The notes beneath the pieces are model-generated. The model saw only the letters and a list, made by a program, of their open reading frames with translations. It searched no databases and was not told the origin of the DNA. The translations under genes were made by a program, and so were the position numbers. From Eledone cirrhosa (Eukaryota), in the NCBI GenBank assembly GCA_964016885.1, contig OZ024743.1, positions 310,124,001-310,188,000 of the forward strand: a stretch of 64,000 nt of DNA, in the 5' to 3' direction. Positions 7,750-63,600 of the stretch are shown here, in pieces (the stretch's first letter is position 1; every line of letters begins with the position of its first letter).

Positions 7750-8668
7750 ATAATTGTTCTGCATCCCCTTGCATTGAACCATAAAGTTACCAAGACAAAA
7801 CCTATATATTTGCTAGCTACACTAATATACTAGTAGATATACTAATTCTTTATAATTATCTCCAAATTATTTTGTTGTGCAAATATTTGCCAAAACTGCT
7901 ACTATAGTTCATAGTAATGGCTCGGCTACTGTCTTTTTAACACCCCACTCTTCACTGATTATCCTCGATGTCACGTGATTGATTCTTTCTAATTTGTCAC
8001 CGACCAAGTAGGCAGTGATTTTTTTCAATGTCTTGGAATTTAGTCCACGCTTGCTTTTTTCCATCCACTGAATTATTTTTGTATAAGTTCCCTGTGTCCA
8101 CGCTTCGCCTGGTAACTTAGCTGAGAACATACTTCCTGATGACGAAACAGCTTCTCCATGCTTTCCATTTGGAAACCATGTTTATTCCCTTTCAGAAACT
8201 AATTAGTTGGAGGAAATTTTAGTAAGTAAGTTCATTTTTATAATTTTCTTATTTTACGTCTTTCATATAATTGTTCTGCATGCCCTTGCATTGAATCACA
8301 AAGTTACTAAAACAAAACCTATATATTTGCTAGCATAGGTATGCATCTGTATATATATGTTGGTAGATATACTAATTCTTTACAATTATCTCCAAATTAT
8401 TTTATTGAGCAAAAATTTGCCAAAACTGCTACTATAGTTCATAGTAATGGCTCGGCTACTGCCTTTTTAACACCCCACTCCTCACTGATTAACCTCGATG
8501 TCACGTGATTGATTCTTTTGAATTTGCCACCAACCAAGTAGGCAGTGATTTTTTCTCCATGCTTTCCATTTAGAAACCATGTTTATTCCATTACAGAAAC
8601 TAATTAGTTGGAGTGAAATTTTAGTAAGTAAGTTAATTTTTATAATTTCCTCATTTTACATCTTTCAT
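7750..8668 (+). mobile_element. ~530-nt HHR-containing non-coding tandem repeat (family A), ~1.7 units
   Basis: 7750-8268 repeats at 8268-8668 with an internal deletion; HHR at 8131-8212; homologous to 20128-22017. Confidence 0.8.
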
Positions 8669-15910: not shown

Positions 15911-16127
15911 TATATAACGACGGAAATGTGGTAAGGAACCAGGTGGACCATAACGCACCAAAGTACTCAATACTTAGAGTAGTAGAGTGGGTAATAGCAA
16001 CGAATAGGACCCCGACGGCTGAGCTCAAGCCGTTTCGACGGCTAATTCTGGACTAATACCTTTTTTTTAATCAAGAGTTAGCCGTAGAAACGGCTTGAGC
16101 TCAGCCGTCGGGGTTCTATTCTTTCCT
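15335..16127. repeat. Short terminal fragments of Hydra-like family H3 (15335-15393 +; 15917-16055 -; 16070-16127 +) separated by (TA)n
   Basis: All contain GAAACGGCTTGAG(C/A)TCAGC(C/T)GTCGG, the 3' half of the family H3 ribozyme. Confidence 0.75.
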
Positions 16128-16146
16128 ATATATATATATATTTATA

Positions 16147-16812
16147 TGAGAGACGTAAAATAAGAAAATTATAAAAATTATCTTACTTACTAAAATTTCA
16201 CTCCAACTAATTATTTTCTGAAAGGGAATAAACATAGTTTCCGAAGAAACGTACGGAGAGCCTTTCGTCATCAGGGAAGTCTATTCTCAGCTAAGTTTCC
16301 AGGCAATACGCGGACACAGGGAACTTATACAAAAATAATTAAGTGGATGGAAAAAAGCAAAGCGTGGACTAAGTTCCAAGCCATTGAAAAAATCACTGCC
16401 TACTGCGTCGGTGGCAAATTCAAAAGAATCAATCACGTGACTTCGAGGTTAATCAGTGAAGCGTGGTTTGTTAAGAAGACAGCAGCCGGACTGTTACTAT
16501 GAACTATAGTAGCAGTTTTGGCCAATTTTGGCTCGACAAAATAATTTGGACATAATTATAAAGAATTAGTATATCTGCTAACATATATATACAGATGCAT
16601 ACCTATGCCAGCAAATATATAGTTTTCGTCTTAGTAACTTTGTGGTTCAATGCATGGGGATTCAGAACATTAATATGAGAGACGTAAAATAAGAAAATTA
16701 TAAAAATTAACTTACTTACTAAAATTTGAACCACAAAGTTACTAAGACAAAACCTATATATTTGCTGGCATAGGTATGCATCTGTATATATATGTTAGCA
16801 GATATACTAATT
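16147..16812 (-). mobile_element. Family A ~530-nt HHR repeat, ~1.1 units plus short inverted piece
   Basis: atgagagacgtaaaataag at 16147 and 16676; HHR at ~16200-16279(-). Confidence 0.8.
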
Positions 16813-19488: not shown

Positions 19489-20127
<639 letters not shown>

Positions 20128-22016
20128 ATGAAAGACGTAAATAACAAAGTTATGAAAATTGACTTACTTACTAAAATTTCACTCCAACTAATTAGTTTCT
20201 GTAAGGGGATAAATACAGTTATGTAATATCTGTAGAGAAGCCTTACGTCATCAGGGAGTCGATTCTCGGCTAAGCTACCAGGCAATGCGGGGACACTGGA
20301 AACTTATATAACAATAATTCAGTGGATGGAAAAAAGCGAAAAAAGCGAGTGGGGCTAGATTCCAAGCCACTGAAAATTCACTGCCTTCTTGATCAAGTGG
20401 CAAATTCAAAAGAATCAATCACGTGACACTGAAGTTAACCAACTTGGAGTGGGGGTGCTATTAAGACAGAGCCTAGCCACTACAATCAGTCACAGTAGTA
20501 ATTTGGCAAATTTTGCTCTACAAATAATTTGGAGATGATTATTAAGAATTAATATATCTACCGACATATGTATACAGATGCATACCTATGCCAGCAGATA
20601 TATATGTTTTGTCTTAGTAACTTAGTGGCTCTATGCAGGGGAATGCAGAACAATTATATGAAAGACGTAAATAAGAAAGTTATGAAAATTGACTTACTTA
20701 CTAAAATTTCACTCCAACTAATTAGTTTCTATAAGGGGATAAATACAGTTATGTAATATCTGTAGAGAAGCCTTACGTCATCAGGGAGTCGATTCTCAGC
20801 TAAGCTACCAGGCAATGCGGGGATACTGGAAACTTATATAACAATAATTCAGTGGATGGAAAAAAGCGAAAAAAGCGAGTGGGGCTAGATTCCAAACCAC
20901 TGAAAATTCACTGCCTTCTTGGTCAAGTGGCAAATTCAAAAGAATCAATCACGTGACACTGAGGTTAACCAGCTTGGAGTGGGGTGCTATTAAGACAGAG
21001 CCTAGCCACTACAATCAGTCACAGTAGTAATTTGGCAAATTTTGCTCTACAAATAATTTGGAGATGATTATTAAGAATTAATATATCTACCGACATATGT
21101 ATACAGATGCATACCTATGCCAGCAGATATATATGTTTTGTCTTAGTAACTTTGTGGCTCTATGCAGGGGAAGGCAGAACAATTATATGAAAGACGTAAA
21201 CAAGAAAGTTATGAAGATTGACTTACTTACTAAAATTTCACTCCAACTAATTAGTTTCTGTAAGGGGATAAATACAGTTATGTATTATCTGTAGAGAAGC
21301 CTTACGTCATCAGGGAGTCGATTCTCAGCTAAGCTACCAGGCAATGCGGGGATACTGGAAACTTATATAACAATAATTCAGTGGATGGAAAAAAGCGAAA
21401 AAAGCGAGTGGGGCTAGATTCCAAACCACTGAAAATTCACTGCCTTCTTGGTCAAGTGGCAAATTCAAAAGAATCAATCACGTGACACTGAGGTTACCCA
21501 GCTTGGAGTGGGGTGCTATTAAGACAGAGCCTAGCCACTACTATCAGTCACAGTAGTAATTTGGCAAATTTTGCTCTACAAATAATTTGGAGATGATTAT
21601 AAAGTGTCATGTGATTGATTCTTTTGAATTTGCCACTTGACCAAGAAGGCAGTGAATTTTCAGTGGTTTCGAATCTAGCCCCACTCGCTTTTTTCGCTTT
21701 TTTCAATCCACTGAATTATTGTTATATAAGTTTCCAGTGTCCCCGCATTGCCTGGTAGCTTAGCTGAGAATCGACTCCCTGATGACGTAAGGCTTCTCTA
21801 CAGATATTACATAACTGTATTTATCCCCTTACAGAAACTAATTAGTTGGAAAGAAATTTTAGTAAGTAAGTCAATTTTCATAACTTTCTTATTCACGTCT
21901 TTCATATAATTGTTCTGCATTCCCCTGCATAGAACCACAAAGTTACTAAGACAAAATATATATATCTGCTGGCATAGGTATGCATCTGTATACATATGTC
22001 GGTAGATATATTAATT

Positions 22017-22017
<1 letters not shown>
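20128..22017 (-). mobile_element. Family A retrozyme-like array: ~2.8 tandem 530-bp units plus an inverted arm (21605-22017)
   Basis: Units start at 20128, 20658, 21187; HHRs at 20181-20259, 20711-20789, 21240-21318 (-) and 21774-21852 (+). Confidence 0.9.
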
Positions 22018-22087
<70 letters not shown>

Positions 22088-23170
22088 TATGTAAGTATGT
22101 ATGTATACGTACATACATATATGTATACAGACGTCCAGTAGCATGTATATATATATACATACAGGCACACATACATATATGCACGTATCAGTTTACCGAA
22201 CATTTATTATAATGCTCGATTTGTTCGTTTGTAAACAAACAAACAGCCTGAATTGCGTCGTACAGTGTTTAGGCAACCACGTCACCTTTTTGTTCAACAC
22301 TGACACAGGAACGATGTACTAGTTTCAAGCTTATTAGCTATCGTCAGCACCGTATACCTTTCTGCCAGATGGTTGAACGTCCGAAAGTATATACTTTCCT
22401 TATGAAAATTAACGGCTGAGCAGCCTAATTTGCATATCGAGTGAGTTCAGTCGGCTAGGCGCCCCGAAGACGATAAATGGAATAGAATGAAACGAAATTT
22501 CATTTCTCACTCTTAGTACGGCACTTACTTAAATGTAAGTATGTATGTATACGTACATAAATATATGTATACAGACGTACAGTAGCATGTATATATATAT
22601 ACATACAGGCACATATACATATAGGCATGTATCAGTTTACCGAACATTTATTATAATGCTCGGTTTGTTAACAAACAAACAGCCTGAATTACGCCGTACA
22701 GTGTTTAGGCAACCATGTCACCTTTTTGTTCAACACTGACACAGGAACGATGTACTAGTTTCAAGCTTATTAGCTATCGTCAGCACCGTATACCTTTCTG
22801 CCAGATGGTTGAACGTCCGAAAGTATATACTTTCCTTATGAAAATTAACGGCTGAGCAGCCTAATTTGCATATCGAGTGAGTTCAGTCGGCTAGGCGCAC
22901 CGAAGACGATAAATGGAATAGAATGAAACGAAATTTCATTGCTCACTCTTAGACGGCACTTACTTAAATGTAAGTATGTATGTATACGTACATACATATA
23001 TGTATACAGACGTATACATACATACTTACATTTAAGTGTGCCTGTATGTATATATATACATGCTACTGTACGTCTGTATACATATATGTATGTACGTATA
23101 CATACATACTTACATTTAAGTAAGTGCCGTACTAAGAGTGAGAAATGAAATTTCGTTTCATTCTATTCCA
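22088..23170 (-). mobile_element. Family B retrozyme-like array: ~2.1 tandem 436-bp units plus a short inverted arm
   Basis: HHRs at 22311-22353 and 22747-22789 (-): cggtg-CTGACGA-tagct-aata-agctt-GAAAC-ta-GTA-catcg. Confidence 0.9.
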
Positions 23171-23226
23171 TATATAAATATATATTTATATATACATATA
23201 AATATATATTTATATATATATATATA

Positions 23227-23289
<63 letters not shown>

Positions 23290-23330
23290 ATATATATATA
23301 AATATATATTTATATATATATATAAATATA

Positions 23331-23387
<57 letters not shown>

Positions 23388-23391
<4 letters not shown>

Positions 23392-24368
23392 CCCTGGTTT
23401 CTGTTGAGCTCTGCTGATCAATGAAATTCCAACCGTGACCATCTCCACTGAAAGTTTTCATGAAATAGTCTTTTAAGACTATACAGAGCATTTGATGTTA
23501 TTCCAAATTGAAGGATAAGTGTTTCAAACTTTATTTTATCATGAGTTAAAGGTCTATAGATTTTTCCCTGGATTTTACTAAATTCTGTGGATGAATTTAT
23601 ATCCTGATTCTCTTTTGAGATGAGTTTGAATTATTTTTCCTAAATCTTTCGTTAACTACTTTTCCAATCTTGACGTTATAGTCGCATATATGTTATAGAA
23701 TGCCGTTAGCTTCTTGCTAAAACAATCTCTATACCTCTCATTTATATTTATACTCGGATTCTTTTCCTACAGTGCTTAAACTATCTGTGACTAATCCCGG
23801 TTTTTTTCATAAAACTGTGATAATTATTGCTATTTTGCTGAACTCCTTTGTAGAGTTTTTTTTCAGAATGTATTTGACTGCTATTTCTTGTAAATAAACA
23901 TTCACTTCTATCCTGACGTCACTAGCCCCGTTTTTTCCTCATGTGCTTTTTCATAAATACACATGAAGGCGAACTAGCCAGTTTTAGAATTCCCTTTTTC
24001 GGATTATATTACTGTGAGAGTCCTGGTTTCTGTTGAGCTCTGCTGATGAATGAAATTCCAACCGTGACCATCTCCACTGAAAGTTTTCATGAAATAGTCT
24101 TTTAAGACTATACAGAGCATTTGATGTTATTCCAAATTGAAGGATAAGTGTTTCAAACTTTATTTTATCATGAGTTAAAGGTCTATAGATTTTTCCCTGG
24201 ATTTTACTAAATTCTGTGGATGAATTTATATCCTGATTCTCTTTTGAGATGAGTTTGAGTTATTTTTCCTAAATCTTTCGTTAACTACTTTTCCCATCTT
24301 GACGTTATAGTCGCATATATGTTATAGAATGCCGTTAGCTTCTTGCTAAAACAATCTCTATACCTCTC

Positions 24369-24375
<7 letters not shown>
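23388..24375 (+). mobile_element. Family C retrozyme-like array: ~1.6 tandem 629-bp units
   Basis: HHRs at 23408-23489 (core mutated to CTGATCA) and 24037-24118. Confidence 0.9.
24037..24118 (+). ncRNA. Type I hammerhead ribozyme with all three stems well paired
   Basis: gctctg-CTGATGA-atgaaa..tttcat-GAAA-tagtctt-tt-aagacta-TA-cagagc. Confidence 0.9.
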
Positions 24376-24445
<70 letters not shown>

Positions 24446-24451
<6 letters not shown>

Positions 24452-27122: not shown

Positions 27123-27207
27123 AATATATATTTATACATATATATATAAAAATATATATATATATATATAAATATATATTTATATATATGTATAAATATA
27201 TATATAT

Positions 27208-28035
27208 AAACGGAAAAAATGAAACGAAATTTCATTTCCCACTCTTAGTACGGCTGTTACTTTAATATAAGTATGTACACGTGCATACATATAGGTATAC
27301 AGACGTACAGTAGTATGTGTATATATATACATACACGCACACATATATATATATGTACGTATGGATTCACCGAACATTTATTATAATGCTCGGTGTGTTT
27401 GTAAACAAACATCCCGTATTAAGCCGTAGTGTCCAGCAACCATCGTTGCTCGTTTGTTCAACACTGAGAAAGGAATGCTGTACTAGTTTCAAGCTTATTA
27501 GCTATCGTCAGCAACGTATATCTTCCTGCCAGACATATATATGTGTGTGTGTATATATATATACATACTACTGTACGTCTGTATACATATATGTATGTAC
27601 GTGTACATACTTATATTTAAGTAACAGCCGTACTAAGAGTGGGAAATGAAATTTCGTTTCATTTTTCCGTTTATCGTTTTCGGTGCACCCGGCCGATTAA
27701 CCCACTCGATATGCAAATTGGGCTATTCAGCCGTTAATATGCATAAGGTAAGTATATACGTTCAACAATCTGGCAGGAAGGTATACGTTGCTGACGATAG
27801 CTAATAAGCTTGAAACTAGTACAGCATTCCTTTGTCAGTGTTGAATAAACGAGCAACGATGGTTGCTGGACACTACGGCTTAATACGGGATGTTTGTTTA
27901 GAAACACACCGAGCATTATAATAAATGTTCGGTGAATCAATACGTACATATATATAATATATGTGTGCGTGTATGTATATATATATACATACTACTGTAC
28001 GTCTATATACATATATGTATGTACGTGTACATACT
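27208..28035. mobile_element. Family B (second subfamily, ~423-nt unit), inverted pair
   Basis: HHRs at 27475-27517(-) and 27784-27826(+): gttg-CTGACGA..GAAAC-ta-GTA-cagc. Confidence 0.85.
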
Positions 28036-28037
28036 TA

Positions 28038-28074
<37 letters not shown>

Positions 28075-33341: not shown

Positions 33342-33434
<93 letters not shown>

Positions 33435-33439
<5 letters not shown>

Positions 33440-34315
33440 GAAAGTAGAGAAATTAATGTGAGCAAGAAGCCAACAGTATTTCATAATATATAAGTGACTA
33501 TAACGTCAAAATAGAAAATATTTAACGTAAGATATGGGAAAATAATTCAAACTCAATTAAAAAAAATCAAGACAGAGATTTTATCCACAGATTTTGTGAA
33601 ATCCAGGGAAAAAACCAATAGAGTCTTAACTCAGTATAAAATAAAGTTTAAATACTCATCCTTCAATTTGGAAAAACTACAAATGCTCTATATAGTATTA
33701 AAAAGACTATTTCACGAAACTTTTCAGTGGGATTAGTCACGGTTGGAGTTGTTCATCAGTAGAGCTCAACACGATAGCCAAAGCCACTGCCAAAATTTGC
33801 CAGAAAGGGAATTTAAAAGCAGGCTAGTTCACCTCGTGAGGAATTATGAAAATAAACACACATGTAGAAACATGGCTGGTGACGTCAGAATGAGACGAAT
33901 GTCTGTTTACAAGAAACAGTAGTCAAAACATTCCGAAAAAGCTCTACAAATGTATGGAGTTCAGCATATAGCAATATTATCGCGGTTTTTGTTTTTAAAA
34001 GACCGGGATTAGTCACAAATAATTTTAAGCACTCTAGGAAAAATTCTTAGTATAAACATAAATGAAAGTAGAGAAATTAATGTGAGCAAGAAGCCAACAG
34101 TATTTCATAATATATAAGTGACTATAACGTCAAAATGAGACGAATGTCTGTTTACAAGAAACAGCAGTCAAGACATTCCGAAAAAACACGCTACAGATGT
34201 ATGGAGTTCAGCATATAGCAATATTATCGCGTTTTTTTTTAAAAGAAAGACCGGGATTAGTCACAAATAATTTTAATCAATCTAGGAAAAATTCCGAGTA
34301 TAAATAAAAGTACAG

Positions 34316-34709: not shown

Positions 34710-36700
34710 TTTATGAAAGTAAAACAAAGAAGCCTTCAATACATCAAAAGTCTTTATTAGCCAACAATGTTTCGTCCTATTAAGGACTCATCAGGGCAAT
34801 TAAAACAACAAGAAGTATTATCGGCCAATACAAGCCGAAAACTCCGAAGAATATGGAGTGTACATACACTAAAGTATTGCAAGATTATGGGTGAAAATAT
34901 ATAATAAAAATCACTAAGGAGGTGTATAACATTTAGAACCATATTACAAATATAGTCCAAAGCAAAAAAAACCTAGAGCTAAACAAAGGTGGTTATATAG
35001 AGCGGGAATTATATATAATACTATATAATATAATATAATATACTTGTAACAATATTAAAATTACAATAAAAATTAAAAGGTACAATATACATATGTATAT
35101 ATGTACGCACACGTACGCACATATACACATACATCGATACACATATCCATCTTTAACAGCACAAATTAAACCTTATTAAGAGTTTAAATATAAATAAGCA
35201 TGATAGGAATAAAAATAATAATAATAATAATAATACGTATATCTAATATACATGAAGTAATAATATGATTAAAAGTAACACATATAATATATAATAAACT
35301 ATATAATTATATACTATATAGTATAATATAATAGATAATCTCCGGTTAATTTACACAAACAATATAGATGTCACAATAATACTATAATAATAATATAATA
35401 ACATATATAATATATAATATATAATGGCATGTAAGTTAACAAATCAATTCATATAGAGTTACAGAGTAGGTGAGAAAAAAATATGAATTGTACAATACCC
35501 AAAATTATGATGGTACAAAAATATAAACATCTTACATGATATATAAAATTTAACATATCATAATGGTACATATAATCAACGGTAAGTAATAAGGATCAAT
35601 AGTACAATAACAACTACAATATAAAATAATAATAAACATAATATAATATATAATTACTTATAATTACAAGGTTGGTAAACAGACATATATGTGGATGAGT
35701 GAGTAAGGGCCAGACAGAAAATAGAATGCACAGTAGTATTAATAAATAAATAAATAAAATCAACCGGAAATTAAAAAACAAAAACAAAAGTATATACTTA
35801 GGTCACACATGCAGTTAAGTAAAAACTTAGGAAACAACCCAGGTAAATGACTCGAAAACCCTATTTGATAAATTAATATTAAAAATATTAAAAATATCTA
35901 ATAAGGCAATACAATATTAGCTATGGTTTAAGTAATCAAAATTTATAAAGATTAATATTTCACTACAAATATATATATAAAGGAATGACATTTTCTACTA
36001 TCATTTACATAACGATATCTAAAAAACTGACTTAAGCAGAATTATCGTAGGCTAATAGGGACAGAAAAAAAGAAATGTATGGAGGATACAAAGGAGCATA
36101 CAATCATAGTCAATATACTATATTATAATAATAGAAAGGAGCGTAAAAGAGGGGGGGGGTTAAATATAATCATAATATATTTGAAGGGGTTGACAATAAG
36201 TTTATATGTGTATGGGGGGAGGGAGGGGGGGGGGGGGGTTATCCAAAGAAGAATCCAAATAAAATAAAATAAAATGAAATAAAATAAAATAATGTAAAAT
36301 ATATAATCAGATATATACTCATAAGGTGTTAATAGTGAAAATTTAATGCGTAAGAAGATAGATATGGTATAGTAGCCAAAAGATTATGAGAGCTAGAATA
36401 AAGAGTTGTCAAAAACCAATGATAATAATGATGATAATAATGGTGGTAAACAAAAAGAACCTAAACTAAAAAAATAAGTAATGGAATATATCAGCCAATG
36501 GATACAATTTATACTACTAGAAGCTTTAGGTTTATAATAAAAGTAAGAATTAGAAATAGCGTGGGGGCAAGAAGAGAATATCTCAGACTTTCTATTAAGT
36601 AAGGATTCGCTAGAGAAAATTATAGAGTGTGTCTCGAGGATACAGAGATTACAAAATTTAGTGCGTGTAGAAAGGTTATTAGAGCGTGCTACTAAACAAA
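34710..36700 (-). mobile_element. Hydra-like PLE family H5, 3' end with ~1.8-kb AT-rich 3'UTR
   Basis: Minus strand ~36560-36660 reads FCNLCILETHSIIFSSESLLNRKSEIFSSCPH; terminal HHR. Confidence 0.75.
34756..34800 (-). ncRNA. Canonical type I hammerhead ribozyme
   Basis: gcc-CTGATGA-gtcc-ttaata-ggac-GAAAC-att-GTT-ggc. Confidence 0.85.
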
Positions 36701-37827: not shown

Positions 37828-37909
37828 GGTAGCGTGGCCGAGCGGTCTAAGGTGCTGGTTTAAGGCACCAGTCTCTCCGGAGGCGTGGGTTCGAATCCCA
37901 CCGCTGCCA
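37828..37909 (+). tRNA. tRNA-Leu(AAG), gene or recent retrocopy
   Basis: GGTAGCGTGGCCGAGCGGTCTAAGG..CTGGT-TTAAGGC-ACCAG..GTGGGTTCGAATCCCACCGCTGCCA; 82 nt, long variable arm, intact A and B boxes. Confidence 0.92.
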
Positions 37910-41098: not shown

Positions 41099-41131
41099 AT
41101 ATATATATATAAAACAATCTCTATACCTCTC

Positions 41132-41206
<75 letters not shown>

Positions 41207-45383: not shown

Positions 45384-46227
<844 letters not shown>

Positions 46228-55261: not shown

Positions 55262-55319
<58 letters not shown>

Positions 55320-55954
55320 AGGATGAATATAAAATGAAAGTGCTTTTGTTAAAAAGGAATTTATTAGGTATTGACATATGTTTCTGTAACAGACCGAATA
55401 CCTATGTATCGCTGCTTGCGTAATCATATAATGTTAGCAAGTATTCGATAGCAAATGTATAATCAGTTGTCACTTCTTCAGAGATTTTGGATAAACTGGA
55501 TAAAATCAGAAAAATTGAAGTATTTATATTAGTAAAAGAGGAAGGAACAGAGGGGATAGAATATGACAGATGGTAAAATAATTTACTGCTAAACAAGTAT
55601 ATAATGGGTTTTTAATGAGAATACCATGAGTAAATCTAAATAAGAATTTTGGGGGTGCCGATTTTAATCTCTACTTGACCAACTGGACAGTGGACAGGGC
55701 TGGTCATTTGGTGCAGTAGTATTAATCATAAAGTGTCAATTGGGGAAGGGGGAGATTTCGATTGCTACTAAATAACATCAATGCTAGTGGTCAGCTGGTA
55801 TTTGCTCTAGGGAATTGAATCAAAAAATCAGAAATCTCATTTTATCTATAGCAGTTTGTATTAAAAGGTAAATAATAGAAGAGTTGATAGAATTAAGACT
55901 AATAAAGAATGTTCATATCTATTTTGACAATCAAACGGGGATAGAGACAGGCGT

Positions 55955-58255
55955 TCAATCCTGGTAGTATTTATAATATGAAAATGTAGATTTTAAGCGA
56001 TGGTTACAGTATAACGATCGCTCTATTCTGTTATTTAATAAAATGTTTTTGGATTTCATAATACAAAATAATTCTACATTACATAATCTACAAAATTCCT
56101 GTCCATTGGAATATGGGGGGGGGGCAGTCGCTATTATATCCCATTTTAGGTGAAATTGTTGGTTATTTTCACGCAGCTGCCAAGCCTTGTCTGCGAGTGT
56201 TGTTACATAACGCTGGTTTTCATGTTTTATCGAATAACGATGTCTATAAAGGCGTGATTTAAAGGAGGTGGCTGTAGATCCCACATAGTACCACTTCTGT
56301 CTATCCGATTCGATAGTACATTTGTATACGATGTTGCGTTCAAGACACTGGTTGTTCAACGGACACATTCCTGGTTGGACACAGTTGCAATTACAATTTT
56401 GCGTTGTTGTATTGCCATGGATGGGTTGATGAGGTTGCTTATGTAGAACAGGATGTTGTTTGTTGTTTTGTGATGTTATAGCTAATGTTTTAAGTGTATT
56501 GTTATGTGTTGGAAGGCGTTTATACAACCGTTTTGCGTTAAGCATTTTTATATGTTGTTCAATATTAGGGGCGGTTGAATATGAAAGTCGGATGGTGTTA
56601 GGGTTTAAGATTTTATTATATTTATGTGATGTTGGAAAGTGTTTTCTAACTAATCGAAAGAATTTTGAGGGTAGATTGGTTTTAATAGATTTGTTATAGA
56701 CCGGGTTGTACCAGATATACTCCTTACATCGCCTTCTGTTTGGTGGTGTGCGACTATTATTGTGTCTATTGCGGTAGTGTATGTATGGTGGTGATTCTGT
56801 GCTATTTCTACTCCTATGTGATTTATTTTGGGTGTTTTGGTGATCATTGACTATATACTCTATATTATCTAGGTGACCGGCTTTCCTAAGTGCATCATCA
56901 TAATACTCGGCATGTTCTTTGAAGGTTTGTTGGTTGGACGATAGGCGGGAGATTCTAAGAGAAACATTTCTAGGGATGGATTTAATTATAGAGAGTGGAT
57001 GGTTAGAACTCGTATTTACATATTTAAGGTTCTCATTTAGTTTATGGAACGGTTTAATCGTATCTGTATTGAGATTGAAAGTAACATCAAGGAAATTGAC
57101 CTCTTTGAGGTTATATTCAAATGTAATATTTAATCCTAGTTCTTTAAAAAGTTTTCTGATATTTTTACGCATCCTTTCTAAATTCTGGTTATTCATATTC
57201 TTAACTAATAGGAGCGCATCGTCACGGTAAATTCCACCGTGGAGATCCTTGAATTTTCCTTGTAATCTGTGGGTGATATAAATTCCCACAAGATCTGTTA
57301 CCTCCGCCGAATCATTAGAACCCATAGTGATATCAAAATTAGAAGGTCTATCTTTGCGAACCCAGTAGCTATCATCGAATTTAACTATAGTTTTTCTCGC
57401 TTCCATAATAATTTTAATTTCAGCATCCGTAAGGTCGGAATTATCCTTAGCGAACGAAAGAGCTTCATGTAGAGTATCAGGTGAAATTGAGGAATAATAT
57501 TCATCAATATCAAACTGAATAAATTTTGATTTTTTCTTATCAGTAATGTTGTTAAACCATCTTATTGCTTCATGAGTGTTACCCCATAGTTTAATCTCTA
57601 CTTTAACCTTAACTTGGGGGATAATTCTGTCTAGTATATATTTGCTAATTTTACCTATATCTGATTTAGAGGGGCATATAAGTCTAATATTAGGGTTAGT
57701 ATCGAAGTTTACCTTGTGGTCCTTCAGGTTGAAGGATGGTATAGCTGGTGTTAAGGGTTGCGTTCTATCGTCAATACAAAGTTTTTTAACAATATCACAT
57801 GCCGAGTTGTTGATGTTTTTAAGTGTGGCTTCATTAGTTTTCCTGTATTTTTTATGCAATTCCTTACGGATGAAGTTATTGTAAGTGTCCACATCCATGG
57901 TATATACGTTTGATGTTTTGTCTGCTCTAACAATAACTCCATTGGCGTTTTTTAGATTATTGAGCAGTGCCGTGATGTCATTCTGTAGTTTATTGTTCTT
58001 ACGTTTTGTAAATTTGATCTCCATGATCATATCCATTAGGTCTTGTTCAAATGCATCCAAAAGTGGGTTTGAGGGTGGGTTCTTGTAAGATTTAAATCCA
58101 AATTTATCCTTGTTAAGATCCGATGTTTGGTTTATACGGCTTTTGTCAAAATGGAATGTTTTCCATCTGATTCGTCGAATAAAATCATTGGTCCTTCGTA
58201 TCATACCTAGAATATATTCCCTTTTTGCCTGAATAGGTATGTTTTTTAACGACAT
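55955..58255 (-). CDS. PLE RT + C-terminal GIY-YIG endonuclease, uninterrupted 766-aa frame from MSLKNIP
   Basis: FIQFDIDEYY, FDITMGS, IYRDDAL, NFLDV, CNC..CPL..C, IVYKC..YYVGST, KW, CRLC, LNNR.E, CNH; the extra N-terminus in the ORF track is read-through from the inversion junction. Confidence 0.9.
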   Translation of the reverse strand: MSLKNIPIQAKREYILGMIRRTNDFIRRIRWKTFHFDKSRINQTSDLNKDKFGFKSYKNPPSNPLLDAFEQDLMDMIMEIKFTKRKNNKLQNDITALLNNLKNANGVIVRADKTSNVYTMDVDTYNNFIRKELHKKYRKTNEATLKNINNSACDIVKKLCIDDRTQPLTPAIPSFNLKDHKVNFDTNPNIRLICPSKSDIGKISKYILDRIIPQVKVKVEIKLWGNTHEAIRWFNNITDKKKSKFIQFDIDEYYSSISPDTLHEALSFAKDNSDLTDAEIKIIMEARKTIVKFDDSYWVRKDRPSNFDITMGSNDSAEVTDLVGIYITHRLQGKFKDLHGGIYRDDALLLVKNMNNQNLERMRKNIRKLFKELGLNITFEYNLKEVNFLDVTFNLNTDTIKPFHKLNENLKYVNTSSNHPLSIIKSIPRNVSLRISRLSSNQQTFKEHAEYYDDALRKAGHLDNIEYIVNDHQNTQNKSHRSRNSTESPPYIHYRNRHNNSRTPPNRRRCKEYIWYNPVYNKSIKTNLPSKFFRLVRKHFPTSHKYNKILNPNTIRLSYSTAPNIEQHIKMLNAKRLYKRLPTHNNTLKTLAITSQNNKQHPVLHKQPHQPIHGNTTTQNCNCNCVQPGMCPLNNQCLERNIVYKCTIESDRQKWYYVGSTATSFKSRLYRHRYSIKHENQRYVTTLADKAWQLRENNQQFHLKWDIIATAPPPYSNGQEFCRLCNVELFCIMKSKNILLNNRIERSLYCNHRLKSTFSYYKYYQD

Positions 58256-58279
58256 ATCCAATTGGTGCCATAAATTATT

Positions 58280-59730
58280 ATGGAAGCGAGAAAAACTATA
58301 GTTAAATTCGATGATAGCTACTGGGTTCGCAAAGATAGACCTTCTAATTTTGATATCACTATGGGTTCTAATGATTCGGCGGAGGTAACAGATCTTGTGG
58401 GAATTTATATCACCCACAGATTACAAGGAAAATTCAAGGATCTCCACGGTGGAATTTACCGTGACGATGCGCTCCTATTAGTTAAGAATATGAATAACCA
58501 GAATTTAGAAAGGATGCGTAAAAATATCAGAAAACTTTTTAAAGAACTAGGATTAAATATTACATTTGAATATAACCTCAAAGAGGTCAATTTCCTTGAT
58601 GTTACTTTCAATCTCAATACAGATACGATTAAACCGTTCCATAAACTAAATGAGAACCTTAAATATGTAAATACGAGTTCTAACCATCCACTCTCTATAA
58701 TTAAATCCATCCCTAGAAATGTTTCTCTTAGAATCTCCCGCCTATCGTCCAACCAACAAACCTTCAAAGAACATGCCGAGTATTATGATGATGCACTTAG
58801 GAAAGCCGGTCACCTAGATAATATAGAGTATATAGTCAATGATCACCAAAACACCCAAAATAAATCACATAGGAGTAGAAATAGCACAGAATCACCACCA
58901 TACATACACTACCGCAATAGACACAATAATAGTCGCACACCACCAAACAGAAGGCGATGTAAGGAGTATATCTGGTACAACCCGGTCTATAACAAATCTA
59001 TTAAAACCAATCTACCCTCAAAATTCTTTCGATTAGTTAGAAAACACTTTCCAACATCACATAAATATAATAAAATCTTAAACCCTAACACCATCCGACT
59101 TTCATATTCAACCGCCCCTAATATTGAACAACATATAAAAATGCTTAACGCAAAACGGTTGTATAAACGCCTTCCAACACATAACAATACACTTAAAACA
59201 TTAGCTATAACATCACAAAACAACAAACAACATCCTGTTCTACATAAGCAACCTCATCAACCCATCCATGGCAATACAACAACGCAAAATTGTAATTGCA
59301 ACTGTGTCCAACCAGGAATGTGTCCGTTGAACAACCAGTGTCTTGAACGCAACATCGTATACAAATGTACTATCGAATCGGATAGACAGAAGTGGTACTA
59401 TGTGGGATCTACAGCCACCTCCTTTAAATCACGCCTTTATAGACATCGTTATTCGATAAAACATGAAAACCAGCGTTATGTAACAACACTCGCAGACAAG
59501 GCTTGGCAGCTGCGTGAAAATAACCAACAATTTCACCTAAAATGGGATATAATAGCGACTGCCCCCCCCCATATTCCAATGGACAGGAATTTTGTAGATT
59601 ATGTAATGTAGAATTATTTTGTATTATGAAATCCAAAAACATTTTATTAAATAACAGAATAGAGCGATCGTTATACTGTAACCATCGCTTAAAATCTACA
59701 TTTTCATATTATAAATACTACCAGGATTGA
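58280..59730 (+). pseudogene. 5'-truncated copy of the H1 ORF with a C9 frameshift
   Basis: ORFs 58280-59611 and 59542-59730. Confidence 0.9.
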
Positions 59731-60200
59731 ACGCCTGTCTCTATCCCCGTTTGATTGTCAAAATAGATATGAACATTCTTTATTAGTCTTAATTCTATCA
59801 ACTCTTCTATTATTTACCTTTTAATACAAACTGCTATAGATAAAATGAGATTTCTGATTTTTTGATTCAATTCCCTAGAGCAAATACCAGCTGACCACTA
59901 GCATTGATGTTATTTAGTAGCAATCGAAATCTCCCCCTTCCCCAATTGACACTTTATGATTAATACTACTGCACCAAATGACCAGCCCTGTCCACTGTCC
60001 AGTTGGTCAAGTAGAGATTAAAATCGGCACCCCCAAAATTCTTATTTAGATTTACTCATGGTATTCTCATTAAAAACCCATTATATACTTGTTTAGCAGT
60101 AAATTATTTTACCATCTGTCATATTCTATCCCCTCTGTTCCTTCCTCTTTTACTAATATAAATACTTCAATTTTTCTGATTTTATCCAGTTTATCCAAAA

Positions 60201-60320
60201 TCTCTGAAGAAGTGACAACTGATTATACATTTGCTATCGAATACTTGCTAACATTATATGATTACGCAAGCAGCGATACATAGGTATTCGGTCTGTTACA
60301 GAAACATATGTCAATACCTA
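60201..60320 (+). ncRNA. Atypical hammerhead motif in the H1 pLTR (also 63318-63437 + and 55365-55484 -)
   Basis: CTGAAGA-agtgaca..~75 nt..tgttaca-GAAAC-atat-GTC; stem I poorly paired. Confidence 0.6.
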
Positions 60321-60526
60321 ATAAATTCCTTTTTTAACAAAAGCACTTTCATTTTATATTCATCCTTTCTACATTTCTCCGGAATATAATTTATACTCGT
60401 TGAGCAAACCTGCACGTACGCTGTTCATCTCTAACGTAACGATATATTATCACTACATTATTGATAACCTGAAATTTTATTAATCTCCTATACAGTTGAG
60501 CAACTAATTCAGCATACGCTTCTAAA

Positions 60527-62847
60527 ATGGAAAGGCACCAATTGGATATGTCGTTAAAAAACATACCTATTCAGGCAAAAAGGGAATATATTCTAGGTAT
60601 GATACGAAGGACCAATGATTTTATTCGACGAATCAGATGGAAAACATTCCATTTTGACAAAAGCCGTATAAACCAAACATCGGATCTTAACAAGGATAAA
60701 TTTGGATTTAAATCTTACAAGAACCCACCCTCAAACCCACTTTTGGATGCATTTGAACAAGACCTAATGGATATGATCATGGAGATCAAATTTACAAAAC
60801 GTAAGAACAATAAACTACAGAATGACATCACGGCACTGCTCAATAATCTAAAAAACGCCAATGGAGTTATTGTTAGAGCAGACAAAACATCAAACGTATA
60901 TACCATGGATGTGGACACTTGCAATAACTTCATCCGTAAGGAATTGCATAAAAAATACAGGAAAACTAATGAAGCCACACTTAAAAACATCAACAACTCG
61001 GCATGTGATATTGTTAAAAAACTTTGTATTGACGATAGAACGCAACCCTTAACACCAGCTATACCATCCTTCAACCTGAAGGACCACAAGGTAAACTTCG
61101 ATACTAACCCTAATATTAGACTTATATGCCCCTCTAAATCAGATATAGGTAAAATTAGCAAATATATACTAGACAGAATTATCCCCCAAGTTAAGGTTAA
61201 AGTAGAGATTAAACTATGGGGTAACACTCATGAAGCAATAAGATGGTTTAACAACATTACTGATAAGAAAAAATCAAAATTTATTCAGTTTGATATTGAT
61301 GAATATTATTCCTCAATTTCACCTGATACTCTACATGAAGCTCTTTCGTTCGCTAAGGATAATTCCGACCTTACGGATGCTGAAATTAAAATTATTATGG
61401 AAGCGAGAAAAACTATAGTTAAATTCGATGATAGCTACTGGGTTCGCAAAGATAGACCTTCTAATTTTGATATCACTATGGGTTCTAATGATTCGGCGGA
61501 GGTAACAGATCTTGTGGGAATTTATATCACCCACAGATTACAAGGAAAATTCAAGGATCTCCACGGTGGAATTTACCGTGACGATGCGCTCCTATTAGTT
61601 AAGAATATGAATAACCAGAATTTAGAAAGGATGCGTAAAAATATCAGAAAACTTTTTAAAGAACTAGGATTAAATATTACATTTGAATATAACCTCAAAG
61701 AGGTCAATTTCCTTGATGTTACTTTCAATCTCAATACAGATACGATTAAACCGTTCCATAAACTAAATGAGAACCTTAAATATGTAAATACGAGTTCTAA
61801 CCATCCACTCTCTATAATTAAATCCATCCCTAGAAATGTTTCTCTTAGAATCTCCCGCCTATCGTCCAACCAACAAACCTTCAAAGAACATGCCGAGTAT
61901 TATGATGATGCACTTAGGAAAGCCGGTCACCTAGATAATATAGAGTATATAGTCAATGATCACCAAAACACCCAAAATAAATCACATAGGAGTAGAAATA
62001 GCACAGAATCACCACCATACATACACTACCGCAATAGACACAATAATAGTCGCACACCACCAAACAGAAGGCGATGTAAGGAGTATATCTGGTACAACCC
62101 GGTCTATAACAAATCTATTAAAACCAATCTACCCTCAAAATTCTTTCGATTAGTTAGAAAACACTTTCCAACATCACATAAATATAATAAAATCTTAAAC
62201 CCTAACACCATCCGACTTTCATATTCAACCGCCCCTAATATTGAACAACATATAAAAATGCTTAACGCAAAACGGTTGTATAAACGCCTTCCAACACATA
62301 ACAATACACTTAAAACATTAGCTATAACATCACAAAACAACAAACAACATCCTGTTCTACATAAGCAACCTCATCAACCCATCCATGGCAATACAACAAC
62401 GCAAAATTGTAATTGCAACTGTGTCCAACCAGGAATGTGTCCGTTGAACAACCAGTGTCTTGAACGCAACATCGTATACAAATGTACTATCGAATCGGAT
62501 AGACAGAAGTGGTACTATGTGGGATCTACAGCCACCTCCTTTAAATCACGCCTTTATAGACATCGTTATTCGATAACACATGAAAACCAGCGTTATGTAA
62601 CAACACTCGCAGACAAGGCTTGGCAGCTGCGTGAAAATAACCAACAATTTCACCTAAAATGGGATATAATAGCGACTGCCCCCCCCCATATTCCAATGGA
62701 CAGGAATTTTGTAGATTATGTAATGTAGAATTATTTTGTATTATGAAATCCAAAAACATTTTATTAAATAACAGAATAGAGCGATCGTTATACTGTAACC
62801 ATCGCTTAAAATCTACATTTTCATATTATAAATACTACCAGGATTGA
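60527..62847 (+). CDS. Full-length H1 RT-GIY-YIG ORF with one frameshift in a C9 run at ~62679-62687
   Basis: 733-aa ORF plus C-terminus in ORF 62659-62847. Confidence 0.88.
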
Positions 62848-63600
62848 ACGCCTGTCTCTATCCCCGTTTGATTGTCAAAATAGATATGAACATTCTTTAT
62901 TAGTCTTAATTCTATCAACTCTTCTATTATTTACCTTTTAATACAAACTGCTATAGATAAAATGAGATTTCTGATTTTTTGATTCAATTCCCTAGAGCAA
63001 ATACCAGCTGACCACTAGCATTGATGTTATTTAGTAGCAATCGAAATCTCCCCCTTCCCCAATTGACACTTTATGATTAATACTACTGCACCAAATGACC
63101 AGCCCTGTCCACTGTCCAGTTGGTCAAGTAGAGATTAAAATCGGCACCCCCAAAATTCTTATTTAGATTTACTCATGGTATTCTCATTAAAAACCCATTA
63201 TATACTTGTTTAGCAGTAAATTATTTTACCATCTGTCATATTCTATCCCCTCTGTTCCTTCCTCTTTTACTAATATAAATACTTCAATTTCTCTGATTTT
63301 ATCCAGTTTATCCAAAATCTCTGAAGAAGTGACAACTGATTATACATTTGCTATCGAATACTTGCTAACATTATATGATTACGCAAGCAGCGATACATAG
63401 GTATTCGGTCTGTTACAGAAACATATGTCAATACCTAATAAATTCCTTTTTTAACAAAAGCACTTTCATTTTATATTCATCCTTTCTACATTTCTCCGGA
63501 ATATAATTTATACTCGTTGAGCAAACCTGCACGTACGCTGTTCATCTCTAACGTAACGATATATTATCACTACATTATTGATAACCTGAAATTTTATATA

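Follow-up and report, generated by a model that had tools for sequence, protein, structure and literature searches.

A non-coding, hammerhead-bearing repeat family of Eledone cirrhosa with a fixed internal 3′ end in (TA)n and a predicted loop II-flank helix: a probable Penelope-mobilised retrozyme

How does a short repeat that carries a ribozyme and no apparent gene spread through an animal genome, and does its ribozyme matter to that spread? The question is raised by a tandem repeat in a 64,000-nt stretch of Eledone cirrhosa DNA (contig OZ024743.1; hereafter the window), in which a first-pass annotation had described a 629-nt unit with a well-formed hammerhead, here called family C. The period of 629 nt is confirmed and the unit has 32.8% GC; the window insertion (Table 1) holds 1.56 copies, with 4 differences in the 356 overlapping positions of its two tandem copies. 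The older copy of a second subfamily is about 78-80% identical. The unit had been thought long for a metazoan retrozyme, a view that does not hold, since 629 nt lies inside the 51-972 bp given for animal retrozyme families (Li, Clavereau & Pollet 2026, bioRxiv 10.64898/2026.07.22.740005).

The downstream hammerhead folds as a three-way junction of −17.6 kcal/mol (z −2.86; 2 of 200 shuffles as good), and folding reproduces the geometry first proposed for it: a stem I of 6 bp, a stem II of 6 bp with a 29-nt loop, a stem III of 7 bp (counting A15.1-U16.1) with a 4-nt loop, and an AUA cleavage triplet. The CUGANGA core, GAAA, an NUH triplet, three helices and an open helix I make it a type I hammerhead; an Rfam scan gave no match to it at E up to 1, probably because of the long loop II. 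The core of the upstream copy does read CTGATCA, as noted earlier, with C at 23419 (G8C). Since G8C abolishes cleavage of a Penelope hammerhead (PMC11167929), this copy is predicted to be inactive, which would leave a single intact ribozyme, so that monomers could not be released from the window locus; it is likely not a donor.

Two further claims of the first-pass annotation survive in part. The second-subfamily copy was said to carry a compensatory change in stem I, and A-U for G-C is indeed present, but the copy is decayed (z −0.80, with mismatches in stems II and III), so covariation had to be shown on other copies. The long stem III was said to suggest monomeric activity; it does exceed the 1-2 bp of helix III in most animal hammerheads (PMC4209133), but monomeric cleavage is not special, being reported for most invertebrate retrozyme hammerheads (PMC7761336), and the window copy with its natural flank is predicted to lose stem I, which makes such activity less certain than stem III suggests.

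Table 1. Positions of family C features within the 64,000-nt window
Feature	Position	Strand	Remarks
Whole insertion	23388..24372	+	1.56 copies of the 629-nt non-coding unit, 5′ truncated, (TA)n on both sides
(TA)n run, 5′ junction	23170..23388		target site
(TA)n run, 3′ junction	24372..24446
Upstream hammerhead copy	23408..23489	+	core change G8C at 23419; predicted inactive
Internal copy of fixed 3′ end	23737..23753	+	next letters resemble (TA)n; putative priming site
Flank upstream of stem I	24012..24035	+	complementary to loop II; predicted blocking hairpin or pseudoknot
Loop II part facing the flank	24059-24079	+
Type I hammerhead, whole	24037..24118	+
Hammerhead stem I	24037-42/24113-18	+
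Hammerhead core	24043-49	+
Hammerhead stem II	24050-55/24085-90	+	loop II 24056-84
Hammerhead GAAA	24091-94	+
Hammerhead stem III	24094-100/24105-11	+	predicted cut after 24112
Fixed 3′ end of family C	24366..24372	+	260 nt past the cleavage site; putative RT start
Older copy, second subfamily	33433..34309	-	~1.1 units plus partial duplication, same 3′ end
Decayed hammerhead of that copy	33685-33765	-
Very short 5′-truncated copy	41110..41144	+	retains just the final ~26 nt of the unit; lies in (TA)n

DNA searches of the 3.0-Gb genome returned 1,369 and 1,801 candidates for the two subfamilies, and a hammerhead pattern with the core and two flanks fixed found 2,230 exact matches against 0 for the reversed pattern, so the family hammerhead is not a product of chance. 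The first 100 pattern matches listed on C1 supplied 70 loci, of which L138 was dropped (it overlaps L137), leaving a sample of 69. AUA is the triplet in 66 of these, the 7 bp of helix III are paired in 96% of cells, and the base of helix II is not the usual G10.1-C11.1 but A-U in 33, U.U in 33 and otherwise composed in 3. Three pairs, two in stem I and one in stem II, show two-sided change in the 69 genome-order copies: pair 1 of stem I is G-C in 48 and A-U in 19, pair 4 of stem I U-A in 60 and A-U in 6, and pair 2 of stem II C-G in 43 and U-A in 21. Tested against shuffles, on structures drawn from the very sequences tested, hammerhead cells altered on both sides number 43 versus 12.4 (0 of 500 as high) and pairs with two-sided change 4 versus 2.8 (61 of 500). 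The two-sided changes stem from a few subfamily events, and that in stem II could instead be CpG decay on both strands. RNAalifold recovers stem I alone from the ribozyme alignment, and the consensus fold of the whole unit is weak (32 rows, 3 of them wrongly cut).

N7 is the unconstrained position of the hammerhead core, and a pattern that left the 5′ core free (1,668 matches) allows each position to be counted. By hand count of the first 100 matches listed, N7 is U in 60, G in 22, C in 17 and A in 1, 40 of 100 thus not being U, and the other six positions of the 5′ core carry 9 substitutions and 1 insertion in 600 sites, with no position exceeding 3; a script recount of the first 30 found N7 to differ in 12 and any other position in at most 1. 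This concentration of variation at N7 indicates, at the level of sequence, that the copies that spread were under selection for hammerhead catalysis.

The genomic copies hold two features absent from the first-pass annotation, a fixed 3′ end in (TA)n and a pairing of loop II with flank outside the 82-nt hammerhead. Nearly all copies stop at one base about 260 nt past the predicted cut and are followed by (TA)n, their 5′ ends being scattered. Queried with the last 103 nt of the unit without the tail, 23 of 24 independent insertions, ranging from ~130 nt to ~4,650 nt (7.4 units), have this end; among the 69 loci it lies 256-262 nt after the cut in 54, is shifted in 9 and could not be located in 6; TA follows the end motif in 58, and 61 have a microsatellite at the 5′ junction by a liberal test. 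Inside arrays the end motif runs on into an AT-rich sequence similar to the (TA)n target, to which the nicked end of a (TA)n tract could anneal, and the polarity of fixed 3′ and ragged 5′ ends fits a template consisting of the ribozyme-carrying strand. Judged from these junctions, the pattern is the footprint of target-primed reverse transcription begun inside the unit. A Penelope-like element is the likely agent: the fixed 3′ end, 5′ truncation, partial tandems and microsatellite target expected of non-autonomous Penelope-mobilised elements are all present. The insertion footprint is unusually clear, and the ribozyme architecture unusual.

A natural three-unit stretch holds no ATG ORF above 45 aa, no tRNA was found in the unit, and comparison with the seven Penelope proteins of the window gave no match at E below 2; flanking LTRs are absent, copies abutting (TA)n directly. 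Viral contigs, scanned with a loose pattern, gave 120 loci, and none of these resembled the unit at E below 1e-3. Family C is a genuine, abundant and recently active retrozyme-type element, of a kind already known. Two blocks stand out within the unit: a palindromic TGACGTCA at window 23914-23921, which resembles a CRE site, recurs in 23 of 29 full units, as does a block of 12 nt (window 23789-23800) in 24 of 29. Both are possible promoter elements; retrozymes are described as having no promoters (PMC7761336).

The longest array of the young subfamily has 7.4 units and L151 at least 13, each unit with one hammerhead, and some arrays carry array-specific variants common to both turns (three in L106, one in L006, a 30-nt deletion in L103). 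Long arrays were considered as proof of rolling-circle copying and rejected, as their inner units are homogeneous with a period of 1, 2 or 3 and their end pieces are divergent, with private changes. These mutation patterns suggest that duplication at the DNA level later lengthened the largest arrays. Alternate ribozymes are damaged in three of the four period-2 blocks (L100, L151 and L093, not L101), which could reflect dimer circles, or chance followed by DNA duplication.

The account that we consider rather probable is that family C is a non-coding retrozyme mobilised by the enzymes of a Penelope-like element, with circles, internal priming and a blocking hairpin. A locus with two working ribozymes would be transcribed and its RNA would cut itself into unit-length monomers, which a host ligase, by analogy with known retrozymes, would close into circles. 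An endonuclease, presumably GIY-YIG of Penelope type, would nick (TA)n, and the DNA end so released would pair with an AU-rich stretch of the unit; from this single site the RT would copy for a variable distance, past the ribozyme and often past its own start. The longest arrays would grow only afterwards, at the DNA level, and the covarying hairpin formed by loop II and the flank would compete with the active fold, keeping the circle from re-cutting.

This hairpin is new here: by its sequence, the 29-nt loop II can pair with the 25 nt that precede stem I. Over 63 copies (61 distinct; the 69 loci minus 6 truncated in the flank) the helix has 19 pairs and is 88.4% paired, slid controls giving 26-46%; cells altered on both sides number 26 versus 10.8, a value reached in 0 of 500 shuffles, and two pairs covary (G-C 37, G-U 11 and A-U 8 in one; A-U 32 and G-C 14 in the other). 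In 67 copies folded together with 22 nt of their flank, the minimum lay a median of 4.3 kcal/mol below the active fold, and a probability above 0.5 was reached by stem I in 14 and by the proximal flank pairs in 22; for several young-subfamily copies the gap is just 0-2 kcal/mol. The window copy with its flank folds into the loop II-flank hairpin and loses stem I, at a z of −0.26 that is not better than shuffles. Whole units folded as circles lack the active ribozyme in four of four cases, and the circular folds of all four beat their shuffles (z −1.8 to −4.7, 12 shuffles each). The hairpin is accordingly predicted by these models to compete with the active fold. The proximal pairs could be an activating pseudoknot of the kind described in PMC3088659, the folding program being unable to model pseudoknots and the sequence not separating an activating pseudoknot from a blocking hairpin. 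With the distal flank pairs formed, the linker to stem II is only 5 nt and could not reach across the helix; on geometric grounds, therefore, the complete hairpin would represent an off state.

Insertions longer than one unit call for a circular or a multimeric template, and it is here that the most durable alternative enters, in which the same Penelope-mobilised non-autonomous element is copied from linear, mostly uncut read-through multimers, the hammerhead being slow or helped by protein and circles unneeded. Consistent with it, the 5′ ends show no clear pile-up at the cut or at one full turn. Matches with a 5′ end at the predicted cut number 6, with different flanks, versus 1 at one control site; by hand count, 5 of 22 distinct loci on C1 begin within a 30-nt interval at the cut and 3 of the 22 at each of two other TA-like sites; copies of exactly one turn make up 6 of 69 in the sample, and a genome test gave 4 versus 3. 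Nor are the turns of one insertion closer to each other than to other insertions: in 14 partial tandems they differ by 3.2%, compared with 2.7% to the nearest other insertion, and are the closer in 5 of 14. The scarcity of flanked copies in which stem I is probable points the same way, as does the lizard Penelope ribozyme, which is described as protein-assisted, with uncut RNA as the main template (PMC11167929). Against linear templates, most genomic copies have fewer than 2 units, yet many new insertions exceed one full turn, and the long helix III together with core conservation at the subfamily level suggests that real cleavage matters. We consider linear templates rather unlikely and the circular, Penelope-driven account more probable.

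Which element would supply the enzymes is a separate matter. Of 182 loci, 31 contain fragments of Penelope ORFs, which lie beside the unit as elements of their own and in either orientation; where they touch it they are truncated pieces or the ends of other elements, L034 and L134 showing truncated pieces and not an ORF end; in the loci read, a sample of the family, no unit continues into an ORF, in agreement with the earlier expectation that units would not always be attached to one. A candidate is an abundant Penelope-type element (23,244 candidates, many with intact 777-aa frames) encoding an RT, a C-x4-C-x2-C linker and a GIY-YIG domain, the linker fitting Neptune or Nematis as described in PMC8557442; on its sequence it is provisionally termed Neptune-like. 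It has a period of 4,843 nt (L213:1484-3814, L183-L218) and, like related subfamilies, carries a minimal U3-A8 hammerhead with a palindromic helix III, a core variant present in PMC4209133. Its copies stop in (TA)n at either of two sites separated by 38 nt, the known Penelope tail. The last 24 nt of family C look like both of its end motifs joined, and two family C copies end at the short site of the pair. Among 497 TA-adjacent clusters its tail tops the non-family ends at 18.7 (mean 7.1, sd 3.9, next 17.3), a narrow lead (z about 3) under a scoring chosen after the match had been seen, and plain local alignment of the family C end with this tail was not above shuffles. A shared end motif was considered as proof of the partner, and is weakened by the many unrelated families that end alike. 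The Neptune-like element is a lead only.

The same survey bears on the model of the 2026 preprint, under which the copies would be 5′-truncated terminal repeats of an unfound autonomous Penelope-like element and the tandems products of local unequal crossing-over. Truncated autonomous elements would also leave a fixed 3′ end and 5′ truncation, DNA-level duplication is seen in the long arrays, and among the genome's more than 10,000 GIY-YIG candidates the examination covered 30, together with 36 of one family. In all loci read, however, the unit upstream of the ribozyme loops back to the 3′ end sequence, with no ORF; the hammerhead of the Penelope-type elements seen is another one, of the minimal U3-A8 kind; and a fragment shorter than one unit cannot start a tandem by crossing-over. 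No family C sequence occurs in the 30 GIY-YIG loci, and no terminal repeat homologous to the unit was found in these, in the UTRs of the window's Penelope elements or in 36 Neptune-like loci. We consider a terminal-repeat origin improbable. Slightly less probable still is that the unit is a SINE-like passenger of a (TA)n-targeting LINE. LINE-type RT fragments are present in the window, and target-primed reverse transcription in general leaves fixed 3′ ends and 5′ truncation; but the 3′ end here lies within the repeating unit, tRNA head and poly(A) tail are absent, and type I hammerheads, partial tandems and a (TA)n target characterise Penelope elements (PMC8557442, PMC4209133).

With mobilisation by a Penelope-like element retained as the preferred reading, a more specific proposal may be sketched, tentatively and with some doubt: a two-state hammerhead in which the long helix III permits cutting as a monomer and the conserved hairpin locks the ribozyme off in the circle, as in plant retrozymes and viroids, the genomic copies recording Neptune-type priming at one internal target-like site and rolling round the circle.

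A second retrozyme-like family with a unit of ~530 nt (window 20125-21604, 21605-22023, 7750-8555, 16127-16727 and 45537-46063) has a hammerhead-like core with a long loop II and with additional bases flanking the base of helix II on each side; its fixed end in (TA)n is similar, and inverted arrangements are frequent. A 436-nt tandem family (window 22089-23014, 27206-28040) combines a minimal hammerhead-like core with long TA-rich palindromes. At window 34756-34800 (-), where a long AT-rich stretch of non-coding sequence ends, a small type I hammerhead lies ~60 nt away from a (TA)n run; Rfam Hammerhead_1 matches it at 29.1 bits, below gathering. A young Penelope-type element at window 55312-63597, in inverted and tandem arrangement, has an 821-aa open frame (55955-58420, -); it gave no Pfam match, and no canonical hammerhead was seen in its 3′ region. 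A tRNA-like sequence at window 37828-37909 (+; Rfam 53.7 bits), passing directly into (TA)n, is probably a SINE-like repeat. Elsewhere, family copies stand tail to tail in the TA run after full-length Neptune-like elements at two of six loci (L215:5591-6390, L216:5269-6232), with one further case in 30 shorter loci. The flanks of loci L001-L218 contain many further hammerhead families, the genome being unusually rich in hammerheads.

Among known systems, family C is closest to the animal non-LTR retrozymes (PMC7229834; bioRxiv 10.64898/2026.07.22.740005), which are likewise non-coding, AT-rich tandem units with one type I hammerhead each, range from monomers to multimers, have a GC content below 50% and occur alongside Penelope-like elements in the same genome; even the U.U base of helix II recurs in an axolotl family described in these sources. 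In contrast to them, family C has a 7-bp helix III and a 29-nt loop II, no homologous Penelope terminal repeat was found for it, and its single internal 3′ end and strict (TA)n targeting are not among the features these sources describe in the parts drawn on here. Its loop II-flank helix is predicted to block the ribozyme, whereas most animal circles, some mussel ones excepted, are predicted there to leave it free. Neither a fixed internal priming site nor such a hairpin in an animal retrozyme was found in the literature searched (titles, abstracts and parts of texts; supplements may differ).

The ORF-bearing Penelope-type elements, as described, also have an internal fixed 3′ end, heavy 5′ truncation, partial tandems, (TA)n targets and a hammerhead upstream of the end. 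Family C differs from them in the absence of an ORF, in having a full rather than minimal hammerhead (the minimal form has a helix III that is absent or 1-2 bp and palindromic, versus 7 bp here) and in being almost free of inverted 5′ arms, with 2 short-end copies seen. Its priming site resembles the target, whereas lizard Poseidon is reported to start where the RNA does not resemble the cut DNA. The non-autonomous Chlamys elements, MRC1 for example (PMC8557442), are likewise non-coding and multicopy, and Penelope-type proteins insert them head-to-tail into microsatellites; they differ in being algal and in having 3′ sequence in common with autonomous partners, and most Chlamys are described as lacking canonical hammerheads.

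For the helix itself there are two kinds of precedent. In pseudoknot-stabilised hammerheads (Perreault et al. 2011, PMC3088659) loop II also pairs with the flank, but the known cases are activating and of ~4-6 bp, whereas in family C the pairing, with interruptions, extends to as many as 19 pairs, and its distal part seems too long to lie beside stem II. In the self-blocked hammerheads of plant LTR retrozymes and viroids (PMC7229834) a complementary strand similarly hides the ribozyme in the circle, those being type III or infectious RNAs.

How animal retrozymes spread is debated: Cervera & de la Pena 2020 (PMC7229834) propose rolling-circle copying of RNA circles by an unknown retroelement, and the 2026 preprint (bioRxiv 10.64898/2026.07.22.740005) local tandem growth from a Penelope end. 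The young and abundant family C appears to show both layers separately, insertions primed at a single site and then array growth at the DNA level, and it points to a putative priming site and a candidate enzyme, both open to testing in the in vitro Penelope assay that already exists. PMC7229834 also asks what stops animal circles from cutting themselves; for family C, the predicted loop II hairpin offers a concrete and testable answer.
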